From: a virus
Lineage: Duplodnaviria; Heunggongvirae; Uroviricota; Caudoviricetes
Strand: one strand, 5' to 3'
DNA length: 64,000 nt
IMG/VR virus record: IMGVR_UViG_2684623127_000007
Shown piece after piece: positions 21,001 to 27,000 of this stretch (positions within the stretch are counted from its first letter, which is position 1; each line of letters opens with the position of its first letter). A program made the position numbers.

Positions 21001-24000
21001 TAAAAAGCCGAACAACAAACAATAAAAAACCATTAACATCAATAGATTATGATGGCTTCAATCTAAATAATAGGCTATATAATACTGCAAGACACAACAC
21101 ATGCTGTCACTATGAGTCAACTATTTAGATGATATTAGTGACCTGTTTCAGAGCATTAGCGCAAGGCGATTCTTTGTCTTCTTGCACTAATTTTTTATCA
21201 TAAAAATGTTCCTAGCACTGGGCATCAATATCGCAGGTCAGAAAGAGCTCCTGGGGATGCGGCTGGCCGAAAATGAAGGGGCGAATTTCTGGTTCAATGT
21301 GCTGACTGAACTGAAAAACCGCGGTCTGAACGATATCCTCATCGCCTGTGTGTATGGCCTGAAAGAATTCCCGGAGGCCCGCATCCAGTTATGCATCGTG
21401 CATATGGTGCGCAACAGCATGCGCTTCGTGTCATGGAAGGAATACAAAGCCGTCACTCGCGACCTGAAAGCGATTAGCCTCCCACAGAAGAGGCAGGCCA
21501 GCAGGCACTGGAAGCGTTTGCTGCGGCCTGGGACTGCCGCTATCCGCAGATAAGCCGGTGCTAGCTGTCAAACTGGACTAACTTGGCGACGTTTTTCGCT
21601 TATCCGGCAGATATCCGCAAAGTGATCTACACAACGAACGCCATCGAGTCGCTGAACAGTGTGATCCGGCATGCCATCAGGAAACGCAAGGTGTTCCCGA
21701 CGGACGAGTCAGTAAAAAAAGTGGTGTGGCTGGCAATCCAGGCCGCGTCACAGAAATGGACAATGCCGTTAAGGGACTGGCGAATGGCAATGAGCCGCTT
21801 TATTATCGAGTTTGGTGACCGTCTTGACGGTCACTTTTAAGAAAAGGCATTTACACAGAATCCTAAACAGGCTCACAGGCCTCTAATCATCCACATTGTA
21901 AAGATCCTTTGTTGTAAGTAAGATCTGGTACCCTAATAATATCAAAAGGATTAAAATCATCACTGCATCCTTCCACGAGGCATTTCATTGCTCGTAGATC
22001 ACCATATAGCTCTGAAGAGTGATGCGGACATAGCAGATTATAAACTTTACATTTCGAATCTTCTTTGCCTTGTCTACTTTCCTCAATTTTTACTTTCAAT
22101 GAATGCAGAAAAAAAAGATCCCTGATATAACTATCCCTGTCCTCTATCGTCATTCCCGCCCTCAGCGCTCCGACAACCTCATCAGTATTTTCATTTCTCA
22201 CCTCAAATACACTATTTCTCTTATCCATCAGCCCACTTACAAAAGCACTTAGCTCTTGAAAAATTTCCTCAAGCTCATTATTATTTCTGGCACATGAATA
22301 TATAGAGACCATAACATCAAGTTTATCTTGTAATTCAGGAGAAAGAAAGTGATTATGATTAAGCTCACTTACTGATTCCGGAGTCGAAGGGTTACCTCTT
22401 CCTGATACATACATCCATGAATAAAGATTTGCTGAAGAACCACTTGTTGGTAACATATCAAAACCCCCTTAACAAATAAATCCATAAATATTATTGCAAC
22501 TAATATATCTGGATAAAAATATTATATCTTACTTAATACTACACTAATAAGATCCAGCTTTCCTCCGTGATAAGATTGCATGACTTGATGTTCACTCCAT
22601 GAAATATCAGAAACATTATAAGATGATATATCTATTGGATTAAATTCATTTCTCATACGATCATATAAAACATTTGTTTCTGTTGTATCAACAAAAAGAA
22701 TTCCTTTTTTCTCCAGTCTGTCAAACATATCGTAAATAGCCTGTTCAGCTTGTGCTGGTAATGATGGAATATCCAAAAGAGATTCCCCATTTATTTTATT
22801 CATTCTAATACCAATAACATTTCCATTATCATTATATATTTTCTCTGCACTCCCGGAACCATAATACTGATTGAAACAACGAACTTCGCTTGTCACCTCT
22901 TCATGGCTTTGAGATATAGTAAACATCTTCAACACTTTTGTTGTATCTTCCATATCTTCATACACGACAGCATTACCACCTTTACCAATAACATTACCTG
23001 GCACGGGTGATTTATTGTTGCTAACCCTCGGCAACTCTGATTGAGTATAATCCGCTGGAGGTAACTCCGGCTGCGCATAATCCACTGGAGGTAAATCAGG
23101 TCTGTTCGAATGAACAGAGCCTCTTTCTATAGTCGTGCTCACTGGCGATGTATTCAGCATAGCCTCAATTTTTCTGCTAATCTCTCCCTTAGGCCATCCC
23201 AACCTGTGCAACAGATTAGTAAAACAACCACTATGACTTTCTCTTGTAACGCAAAACTTATTATCAGTGACCACAACACGATATGTTCTGTTGCCAACCG
23301 TTACTTGCGTCCCGCTATCAGAGTGAACAGCAGCATCCCTTACAGAGGATAAAACACGATTATCAGGCGAAGTCAGGTTTCTGGTTAAAGAATTCCATGA
23401 ACATCCCAAATTTATAGAAGAGGGCGATAACATACATTTCAACCTTCAAAATAAACCTATCTAATTATTCCTAACAGACATCCCCCATACATGACAACAA
23501 AAACCGGAGCCGGACTCCGGTTTTTGTGAAGCTATCGGGTTACTTCATTTCGCCAATATTTTCCCACTTCCCGTCAGCACGCAGGATTTGCAGCGGTCTT
23601 ACTACACACTGACCCGAGGACGAAAAAAGAGTTCGGGCTGGGAAGAGACAGAAGAGTAGCAATTTCAGAAGCATTCACACCAACATTGAGCTTTTCAGCG
23701 AAAGTGGGCACGAATCATTGCTGGACAGGGTTAAAGGCACTGACTCAATCACTCTTCATACGTGGCTTGATCGATATGAAACAATCCTCAGCTAGAGGGG
23801 GAGCAAGCCGAAAACATTACTCGACTACGCCAGCAAAATCAGGGCAATTCGAAGAAAATTGCCGGACAAACCGCTCACTGACATATCAACGAAAGAGGTG
23901 GCAGCAATGCTAAACACCTACGTCGCAGAAGGTAAAGCGGTTTCCGCAAGAGTAATCAGGTCAACCCTTGTTGACGTTTTTCGAGGGGCAATAGCCGAGG

Positions 24001-27000
24001 GGCATGTGGCAACGAATCCAGTAACAACAACCCGTGCAGCAAAGTCAGAAGTAAGGCGCTCAAGGCTGACAGCTAATGAGTATGTCGCTATTTACCATGC
24101 TGCTGAGCACCTCCCCATCTGGCTGAGGCTGTCAATGGATTTAGCTGTCGTTACAGGGCAGAGAGTGGGCGATTTGTGCAGAATGAAGTGGTCAGACATA
24201 AACGATGGTCATCTTCACATTGGACAGAGTAAAACAGGAGCCAAAATTGCCATTCCGCTGGCTCTAACCATTGACGCACTCGACATCTCACTGGTTGATA
24301 CACTACAGAAATGCAGGGAGGCCAGCAGCAGTGAAACAATAATCGCATCAACCTATCACGAACCACTTTCTCCAGCCACAGTATCACGGTATTTAACAAA
24401 GGCGCGAAATGCATCCGGGATCTCGTTTGATGGAGACCCACCGACATTTCATGAACTACGTAGTCTGTCCGCGAGGCTATATCGGAACCAGATTGGCTAC
24501 AAGTTTGCACAACGTCTTCTTGGACATAAATCTGATTCAATGGCGGCGCATTATAGGGACAGTCGCGGGCGGGAGTGGGACAAAATTGAAATCGGATAAT
24601 GATTTTATTTTGACCAATAATGACTTACCAGATTTAACAACTTGATATTTAATAAGATTTTTGAACGAACAACTTCCATGTCAGAAGGAGGATAAAATCA
24701 CAAAAACACATTAAAAATCATTATGTTATTTATACAATTGATTAAATGATAGACTGCAAAACGCGACAAAACACTACATTTAGAGTCACAATTAATCAAT
24801 GAGTTAGATGTGATTAGTGACCTGAGACAGAGCATTAGCGCAAGGTGATTTTTTGTCCTCTTGCGCTAATTTTTTGTCATCAAACATACAGCCAATCAGA
24901 AGAGCATAAAGCTGCCAAGCATTATATGTCTTAGTTTTATGCTCATTTTCATTAAAAAAATATATAATAAGACTAATATCAGTATAAAATATTTATAACA
25001 CTTAGAGTAAAAATGTAATCAGCTTATACAACCAACAATAATTTAAACTATAAAAAACAATAACAGAAACATTTATAATTTATTTTAAGTGTTCAAGCGA
25101 TAAACTGGTAAATTTAACAACTTAATTTTGAGATCTAAGTCACATCAATCAAGCATTCAAACAGTTATATATTAAAGCTGTCCACATCGGATATGTGACA
25201 CTAATAGTATCAATGGATTGATATTATTAATGGATATAAACATGTAATAAGGATTTATTATGAACATTCAACCGACCATACAATCTGGAATCACCTCACA
25301 AAACAATCAACATCATCAAACAGAACAAATACCCTCTACACAAATACCGCAATCCGAATTACCTCTAGGATGCCAAGCTGGATTTGTTGTTAATATTCCA
25401 GATGATATACAGCAACATGCACCGGAATGCGGTGAAACAACAGCTCTACTGAGCTTGATAAAAGATAAAGGTCTGCTCTCAGGGCTAGACGAATATATAG
25501 CTCCTCACCTTGAAGAAGGATCCATAGGAAAAAAAACATTGGATATGTTTGGTTTATTCAATGTTACCCAAATGGCATTAGAGATACCTAGTTCCGTTTC
25601 AGGCATCTCTGGTAAATATGGTGTCCAGCTAAACATTGTAAAACCAGATATTCATCCTACATCAGGTAATTATTTTTTACAGATATTCCCTCTGCATGAT
25701 GAAATAGGTTTTAATTTTAAAGACCTTCCTGGCCCGTTAAAAAATGCATTAAGCAACAGTAATATATCAACCACTGCAGTGTCGACTATTGCATCGACTG
25801 GAACATCAGCCACTACTTCGACGGTAACCACCGAGCCAAAAGACCCAATACCATGGTTTGGATTAACAGCTCAAGTGGTTCGTAATCATGGTGTAGAACT
25901 TCCTATAGTCAAAACTGAAAATGGATGGAAGCTTGTTGGAGAAACACCACTTACTCCTGATGGGCCGAAAGCAAATTACACGGAGGAGTGGGTTATCAGA
26001 CCGGGAGAAGCAGATTTTAAATATGGTGCATCTCCATTACAGGCAACTCTAGGGCTGGAGTTTGGCGCACATTTCAAGTGGGATTTAGATAACCCTAATA
26101 CTAAATATGCCGTTCTTACCAATGCTGCCGCAAATGCGCTTGGTGCTTTAGGGGGATTTGCAGTATCCAGATTTGCTAGTACAGATCCAATGTTAAGTCC
26201 TCATATCGGTGCAATGGTTGGGCAAGCAGCAGGGCATGCCATACAGTATAATACCCCTGGATTAAAGCCAGACACTATTTTATGGTGGGCTGGTGCGACA
26301 CTGGGGGCTGCCGATTTAAACAAGGCCGAGTTTGAAGTAGCTAGATTCACTGACTATCCTCGTATATGGTGGCACGCAAGAGAAGGAGCTATTTTCCCCA
26401 ATAAAGCAGATATTGAACATGCCACAGGTGCTGATATACGCGCAATGGAAGAAGGTATCCCTGTTGGACAGCGGCATCCAAATCCAGAGGATGTGGTAAT
26501 CGATATCGAAAGCAATGGCTTACCACATCATAATCCATCAAATCATGTTGATATCTTTGATATAATCCAAGAAACAAGAGTCTAAGCTTTAACTTGTTTA
26601 TTTTAAAATAATAGCTGAAATGGATGGCAGCTATTATTAATAAGGATTAATATATTTTTTCTAAAATACCCCACAAAATAAACACATCATAAAAATTCTA
26701 AATACACACACCTAATCTCAAAAAAAACAAACTTACTATTTGACTTGGATTATGTTTTTAATCCAATATTTTCCGACAACATCTCCACAGAAAAATGCAT
26801 TTACATAAAGACGCCTTCAAGTCATCTGAAACCTGCCAACCACAGACACCTTCTTATATTCTGGATGTCTGCGGCGTTTTTTTACAAATTACTGACAGCC
26901 AATACTCTCTCAGAGAAAAATATTTTAACTATCTTTTATAATGAAGTTTCCCTTGATAGGATCATAAACACATTTATCAGGACTTATAATCATTGATGCC

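Follow-up and report, generated by a model that had tools for sequence, protein, structure and literature searches.

The 64,000-nucleotide (nt) stretch of DNA analysed here in full (the window), taken from the Caudoviricetes record IMGVR_UViG_2684623127_000007 of IMG/VR, carries a pair of direct repeats, copies A and B, on either side of a segment that contains the effector genes nleF and nleH and an integrase pseudogene, int'. The region is 100% identical to Escherichia coli O157:H7 genomes, including EDL933, and in the RefSeq annotation it belongs to the prophage next to an ompW remnant, CP-933P/Sp9 or 'PPompW'. Each repeat very probably represents the outer part of a lambdoid attachment region, namely the distal P arm of attP (arm-type integrase site P2, an IHF H1 site and arm-type site P1) followed by the sib/tI hairpin, the two copies being remnants of two different phages, in each case of the right end. 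The repeats and the genes around them are arranged as follows:

Upstream of 17991: espM1 and nleG
17991-18269, + strand: small open reading frame, 'hypothetical protein' in RefSeq EDL933 and, in LC567822 (O145:H28 PPompW), type III secretion system effector EspO of the OspE family
21064-21205, + strand: copy A of the repeat
21206-21840, + strand: IS256-family transposase remnant (RefSeq)
21887-22456, - strand: nleF (RefSeq)
22522-23433, - strand: nleH1-2 (RefSeq)
23540-23611, - strand: 72-nt fragment of a gene for a tail-fibre C-terminal domain, fused to int' (RefSeq)
24743-24884, + strand: copy B of the repeat
25260-26585, + strand: nleA, an effector gene outside the repeat, between sib B and the tail-fibre genes (RefSeq)
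Downstream of nleA, - strand: an nleG-like pseudogene, tail-fibre genes, lom and J

A repeat search returned the two copies as a single direct-repeat family of 142 nt; their ungapped identity is 77%, and their starts lie 3679 nt apart. The pair had been picked out in a first-pass annotation of the sequence as ~80-bp repeats with an internal palindrome, lying in direct orientation about 3.7 kb apart around nleF, nleH and the int pseudogene. The position, the consensus, the orientation and the distance all hold, and the RefSeq annotation of EDL933 bears out the bracketing of the three genes; the length does not, because the repeat extends to 142 nt through a weaker 5' part. In the pairwise alignment the 3' 85 nt are near-identical and similarity decays toward the 5' side, with 88% identity across the 3' 51 nt; nowhere do the copies share more than 18 identical bases in a row. 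A 34-nt pattern drawn from the conserved block and searched with up to 3 mismatches matched only copies A and B in the window, and gave 0 matches in 100 dinucleotide-preserving shuffles. The palindrome is present in copy B as an inverted repeat with 19-nt arms at 24826-24844 and 24860-24878 (84% complementary). In copy A the 3' hairpin arm reads CTTGCACT and not CTTGCGCT, the result of a G-to-A change at 21186, a position that the first-pass consensus had coded R.

When copy B was compared by BLAST with 50,697 phage records, 78 records matched, and all of them were lambdoid (HK97, HK022, HK106, mEp235, 434, phi80, lambda and Stx1a phages) with the exception of one record named for Campylobacter; 29 of the 30 best-ranked matches lay on the int-bearing strand. 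The HK97 record labels the matched DNA 'sib retroregulation site' and places the att core 137 nt upstream, and the HK022 record has two labels there, 'attP site' and then 'sib transcription processing site'. A BLASTN comparison with phage databases and enterohaemorrhagic E. coli genomes had been suggested in the first pass, together with the caveat that the element might turn out to be part of a known IS or phage gene. The caveat applies in that the element belongs to a known phage feature, the annotated sib and attP of HK97 and HK022. The element is already known, as the lambda sib/tI and attP P-arm region. In lambda, sib/tI and the P arm of attP have both been textbook material since the early 1980s.

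A six-way alignment of copies A and B with lambda, HK97, HK022 and one Stx1a phage was mapped column by column and placed the annotated lambda features on the two copies at the following positions:

Annotated 50-nt sib: lambda 27536-27585; copy A 21148-21198; copy B 24827-24877
Int site 'int 1' (arm-type P1): lambda 27583-27602; copy A 21131-21150; copy B 24810-24829
Int site 'int 2' (arm-type P2): lambda 27615-27634; copy A 21099-21118; copy B 24778-24797

The sib of copy A is 88% identical, and that of copy B 96% identical, to the sib of lambda, HK97 and HK022. Inverted GTCACTAT-like arm-type Int sites P2 and P1 with an IHF site between them are present in both copies, as TGTCACTAT, the IHF-like AGTCAACTATTTA and ATTAGTGACC in copy A and as AGTCACAAT, the IHF-like AATCAATGAGTTA and ATTAGTGACC in copy B. 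The IHF consensus is WATCAANNNNTTR; the H1-like site of copy B agrees with it exactly (24794-24806), and that of copy A has one mismatch (21115-21127). In both copies sib lies beyond the P arm, distal to int and on the int-sense strand. The block that the first-pass annotation had written as 'GATGWKATTAGTGACCTG' is, from its alignment, the predicted P1 arm-type Int site, and the palindrome that it had noted ahead of TTTTTT is the predicted sib/tI hairpin. The identity with sib and the P arm and the shared architecture are matters of direct observation, as are the split between phage lineages and the decay described below; the structure assigned to sib/tI is a prediction from thermodynamics and from homology to the experimentally studied lambda site.

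Integration splits attP, and the sib of a prophage then lies at its far right end by attR, away from int, so that Int synthesis is allowed on induction. In the lambda phage genome sib/tI stands beyond attP, downstream of int, which is transcribed from two promoters. Stable transcripts from pI terminate at the tI hairpin; those from pL, antiterminated by N, run past tI, the downstream RNA completes the longer stem, sib, which is cut by RNase III, and the int mRNA then decays from its 3' end, a process termed retroregulation (PMC2951348, PMC5300877). The repeats resemble the lambda sib/tI, which is annotated in HK97 and HK022 too, in having a hairpin and a U-run on the int-sense strand directly beyond P1, and copy B is also predicted to form the extended lower stem. 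They differ from it in that no functional int is present, there being a pseudogene by copy B and none by copy A, and in that the stem of copy A carries a C·A mismatch. With the Sib antitoxin RNAs of the ibs/sib type I toxin-antitoxin systems, an unrelated family of chromosomal antisense RNAs, the site has the name alone in common.

The core hairpin of copy B is predicted to fold with -19.8 kcal/mol over 48 nt (z-score -5.7) and is followed by U6. Its extended stem, at 24823-24882, is predicted at -29.8 kcal/mol (z-score -5.5), and 0 of 200 shuffles were as stable. For copy A the predicted core hairpin reaches -14.6 kcal/mol (z-score -3.1), with a mid-stem C·A mismatch that arises from the A at 21186, and is again followed by U6; an extended stem is not predicted there (z-score -1.4). 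A P1-anchored pattern had 133 matches in the loci that were fetched, mostly IMG/VR contigs, which resolved into 72 distinct variants of the hairpin region. Among these the stem GCATTAGCGCAAGG/CTTGCGCTAAT is nearly invariant, the apical loop alone varies, and the G-to-A stem variant is confined to the copy A lineage. As a separate observation, in four IMG/VR contigs the apical loop of sib is interrupted, between GGTGATTTTTTGTCC and GTAAGCGTAAACCG, by DNA that starts with GTAAGCG, a terminus typical of IS66-family elements such as ISEc8.

The divergence of the two copies differs along the unit. Identity in sib is 88-100% among all phages compared and 88% between copies A and B; in the P2-to-P1 segment it is 67-100% among phages and 69% between the copies; and in the core-proximal P arm it falls to 48-80% among phages and 51% between the copies. 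The core-proximal arm of copy A is 66-70% identical to lambda and HK97 and only 48-51% to HK022 and the Stx1a phage, and that of copy B groups with the HK022/Stx1a phages (65-70%). Copies A and B are, by this comparison, equivalent parts of two different phages.

Copy A continues leftward from its P arm through a core into DNA related to the chromosome at the lambda attachment site, with an insertion sequence (IS) inside that flank:

18478-18516, + strand: left part of the ybhB-attB(lambda) flank relic (B' side), assigned by homology to the flank of attB in K-12 (reverse complement) and of the Sp3 attR in Sakai
18509-18516, + strand: first copy of the 8-bp target duplication CGAAAAAC of ISEc8
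18517-20958, + strand: ISEc8 (IS66 family, 2442 bp), within the flank relic and outside the repeat; ends GTAAGCG...CGCTTAC; annotated as tnpA/tnpB/ISEc8 transposase
20959-20994, + strand: second copy of CGAAAAAC (20959-20966) and right part of the B' flank relic (20967-20994)
20995-21008, + strand: lambda-type att core relic TTAGTATAAAAAGC, from alignment and column mapping
21009-21147, + strand: P arm of copy A, with P2-like (21099-21118), IHF H1-like (21115-21127) and P1-like (21131-21150) sites
21148-21198, + strand: degenerate sib/tI hairpin of copy A, then a T-run, by alignment to the HK97/HK022 sib

Reverse-complemented, the lambda core GCTTTTTTATACTAA (annotated at 27724-27738 in lambda) gives the core relic TTAGTATAAAAAGC once one A/T of the run is removed. 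Because a ybhB flank and not a P' arm stands to the left of this lambda-type core, copy A is best described as a fossil attR of a phage with the lambda attachment site, consisting of the ybhB-side flank, a core minus 1 nt, the P arm and sib, which would have travelled together with a short chromosomal flank. The flank relic equals K-12 at 60 of 67 aligned bases by hand count (~90% identity, with one 8-nt gap). It is found uninterrupted, with the ISEc8 site still empty, in the O145:H28 prophage PPompW_132418, as well as in many enteropathogenic and enterohaemorrhagic E. coli (EPEC and EHEC) genomes. On the other side of copy A, homology to phage DNA ends at 21205, where the IS256-family remnant abuts it.

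A genuine attR of the same layout exists at the lambda attB of Sakai, where Sp3 shows ybhB, B', core, P arm, sib, effectors including nleH1-1, and tail-fibre genes in this order, and attR junctions of the same layout occur in representative genomes of Shigella flexneri, E. coli and Escherichia sp. Copy A shares with the attR of Sp3/CP-933K at lambda attB (ybhC-ybhB) the order and spacing of P2, IHF H1 and P1, and it has the full B'-core-P-sib series with a ybhB-side flank; it differs in lying within the ompW prophage, in a core one base short in the T/A run, and in a flank of which 67 nt are left, split by ISEc8. It can also be compared with the attB-in-PP of PPompW effector loci (Nakamura et al. 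2021, PMC8112680), which belong to the same prophage family and effector locus and are likewise short chromosome-derived att flanks inside prophages. Those are attB-like targets, derived from yecE, ykgJ/ecpE and ompW, for other phages, whereas copy A has the form of a recombined attR-type junction from ybhB-attB(lambda); the main text of PMC8112680 makes no mention of ybhB, ybhC or sib. On a more novel reading, copy A would be the fourth chromosome-derived att relic in PPompW and the trace of a lambda-bio-like aberrant excision by which effector genes entered this prophage. A fossil attR with a ybhB-attB(lambda) flank inside PPompW is one small addition to known biology.

Copy B is embedded in a different context, which comprises the following features:

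23605-24599, + strand: int', HK022-type tyrosine integrase pseudogene, N-terminus missing and frameshifted (RefSeq annotation, Pfam)
24600-24826, + strand: attP of copy B (P' arm, core-equivalent and P arm), with P2-like (24778-24797), IHF H1-like (24794-24806) and P1-like (24810-24829) sites
24827-24877, + strand: intact sib/tI hairpin of copy B with a T6 run; predicted extended lower stem at 24823-24882

In BLAST the segment 23599-24879 aligns without a break to the int-attP-sib of HK022, mEp235 and Gally at 84% nucleotide identity, and since one piece spans the whole module the attP of copy B was never split. Copy B is thus an unsplit int'-attP-sib module of HK022 type in the order of the vegetative phage. 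The product of int' retains a Pfam Phage_integrase domain (1.9e-38) and a partial Arm-DNA-bind_1, a truncated form of the lambda Arm-DNA-binding domain. The core-equivalent TTCCATGTCAGAAGG (24674-24688) matches neither the lambda nor the HK022/Stx1a core, so that among lambda-family attP sites copy B stands apart in being unsplit and in a core unlike that of lambda or HK022. A competent core together with a cognate active integrase was found in neither copy. The core of copy A is one base short and the integrase of copy B, truncated and frameshifted, is dead, and we therefore regard both as relics and not as active sites.

Both copies sit at the outer edge of a block made up of a tail-fibre gene or fragment, effectors and sib. 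The block of copy A contains the tail-fibre fragment, nleH and nleF, so that the nleF-nleH1-2 cargo lies between the tail-fibre remnant and sib A, and the block of copy B contains tail fibres, the nleG-like pseudogene and nleA. Lambdoid prophages have at their right end an exchangeable effector locus with this layout of tail fibre, effectors and sib, and PMC8112680 describes it for PPompW. Read along the minus strand, J, lom, tail fibres, the nleG-like pseudogene and nleA lead to sib B, attP and int'; a tail-fibre fragment, nleH, nleF and the IS256 remnant then lead to sib A, the P arm, core, B' and the ybhB flank; and espO, nleG, espM1 and nleG lead to the ompW attachment site. From these three series we infer that right ends accreted into the ompW prophage, and the effector locus of CP-933P/Sp9 would have been built in this way from at least two other phages. 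One donor may have been a lambda-att phage that left attB(lambda) with a bio-side flank, as in lambda-bio aberrant excision, and the other a genome with an HK022-type int, which would have been joined without use of its own attP. The PPompWs of O145:H28 contain copy A, and nleF, nleH, int', copy B and nleA are missing from them; the seven-effector O157 arrangement is considered ancestral by Nakamura et al. (PMC8112680).

Several results weigh against this reading of the repeats and their history. The donor of the diverged ybhB flank was not found, and a scan of species-representative genomes gave only K-12-type flanks, several of them with genuine attR junctions. The layout is reminiscent of a tandem lysogen that has lost an internal stretch between a tail-fibre gene and int, yet the cores differ. 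A dilysogen at one and the same att site, in the form B'OP-sib-cargo-tfa' / int'-P'OP-sib-cargo-tfa-J, fits geometrically and was tried as a candidate; it is ruled out by the difference between the cores, which means that the locus is not a simple same-site double lysogen. As to the hairpin, the stem is invariant outside the copy A lineage, and the 133 matches and 72 variants accordingly gave 0 covariation support, no covariation test being possible where a stem is essentially invariant. A simple terminator scan flagged neither hairpin, because its loop limit of 3-8 nt falls short of the 15-nt apical region.

Two other explanations of the repeat pair take its geometry at face value, and both are almost certainly wrong. 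The repeats could be attL and attR, or other active sites, of a mobile unit carrying nleF, nleH and int', as their direct orientation and the bracketed integrase (pseudo)gene and cargo genes would suggest; but a true pair shares the core alone, and here both copies carry the same arm, P plus sib, around core equivalents that are wholly different (TTAGTATAAAAAGC in copy A, TTCCATGTCAGAAGG in copy B). The core-proximal arms, only 51% identical, come from separate phage lineages, the integrase has suffered truncation and a frameshift, and the O145:H28 PPompW has copy A alone, with neither the segment nor copy B. Equally unpromising is an origin of the repeats by local segmental duplication, or as the termini of an IS or a miniature inverted-repeat transposable element (MITE), even though the similarity of the copies, the 3.7 kb between them and the wealth of ISs in the region (ISEc8, the IS256 remnant) might bring it to mind. 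Copy A is 66-88% identical to lambda and copy B 70-98% identical to Stx1a phages, against 51-88% between the copies, and the assignment of copy A to the lambda/HK97 lineage and of copy B to the HK022/Stx1a lineage argues against a local duplication as it does against an attL/attR pair. As the first-pass annotation had judged, the repeats do not look like IS termini: they are direct and not inverted, neither has a target duplication, and the sole duplication nearby is that of ISEc8. We therefore retain the reading of the copies as attP P arm and sib/tI relics of two phages.

What the relics may do at present is a separate matter. No integrase is left to regulate, so retroregulation is probably moot, and we infer that neither copy retroregulates anything now. 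At most, the copies may act as intrinsic terminators on the + strand; copy B, 380 nt upstream of nleA, probably still stops transcription of that strand, as copy A probably does with lower efficiency. It is unlikely that sib B has been co-opted for nleA, be it as a terminator or RNase III-sensitive insulator controlling the amount of transcription from upstream that gets to nleA, or within a regulatory RNA of prophage origin whose 3' end it would form. Also unlikely is the wider proposal that copy B, and perhaps copy A, has been co-opted in one of three ways: to terminate or insulate transcription, to shape transcription into nleA as an element sensitive to RNase III, or to supply an Hfq-binding small RNA (sRNA) with its 3' hairpin. 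Co-option would accord with the strong predicted hairpin and U6 that copy B keeps on the + strand, with its place 380 nt upstream of nleA on the same strand, with a promoter-like TTAAAA-16-TACAAT at 24711-24738, and with the sRNAs that the prophage encodes elsewhere, for example AgvB and STnc100. On the other hand, no Rfam model matched even at E<=10, the promoter scan gave 10 promoter-like sites where chance predicts 13.9, the conservation of copy B in O157 (at least 99% identity) reflects recent common descent and not demonstrated selection, and the copy B sequence is simply that of the ancestral phage sib.

The Rfam searches, which covered the whole window at the gathering threshold and 20800-25300 at E<=10, placed no family on either copy, and sib appears to have no Rfam family of its own. 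Of the identities first offered for the repeats (recombination sites, a small structured RNA or a regulatory element) the unit combines two, the P arm being recombination-site DNA and sib/tI a cis-acting structured RNA regulator and int terminator. The copies do not form a functional pair of recombination sites, and, with no Rfam match and no enrichment in promoter-like sites, nothing speaks for a free-standing sRNA gene. An AgvB-like sRNA was also considered, prompted by CA-rich stretches ahead of the hairpins and by the real AgvB at 54626-54685, and was rejected: no model matched, and the CA-rich stretch is lambda P-arm sequence.

Other features were recorded in the window. A tandem pair of 30-nt units, 77% identical, lies at 23030-23089 within the nleH1-2 coding sequence. 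At 54626-54895 Rfam places AgvB, an anti-GcvB sRNA (54626-54685, + strand), back to back with STnc100 (54687-54895, - strand), and two tRNA genes at 55008-55081 and 55165-55237 (- strand) adjoin them to give a prophage sRNA/tRNA cluster. Upstream of the ompW prophage, Rfam matches to C4 antisense RNA (5231-5318, - strand) and isrK (5343-5419, - strand) suggest a P4/P1-type immunity region of another mobile element. Near the far end of the window are an ALIL pseudoknot, a frameshift signal of the IS3 family (60306-60422), and a sok antitoxin RNA of the hok/sok type (61176-61325).

The unit is widespread in E. coli. It occurs in 2066 of 5426 complete genomes (~38%), at 1-6 places in each; at an identity of 99% or more, copy A plus flank is present in 541 complete E. 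coli genomes and copy B in 421 records. Identity of this degree across genomes indicates recent spread and not demonstrated selection. In 11 of 12 sampled RefSeq rows there was no annotated feature under the unit, and the twelfth carried a protein-coding call; the unit looked unfamiliar owing to this lack of annotation, and similar 'mystery repeats' will go on being flagged.

As a discovery the repeat pair matters little. Its use is practical, in that sib together with the P arm pinpoints where a lambdoid prophage has, or once had, its right end, and aids in dissecting mosaic effector loci. Applied here, it points to the remains of at least two further phages, a right end in each case, in the effector locus of CP-933P/Sp9, one of them still joined to a chromosomal flank of lambda attB. 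This fits, and slightly extends, the picture of 'prophages into prophages' by which EHEC has accumulated its type III effectors.

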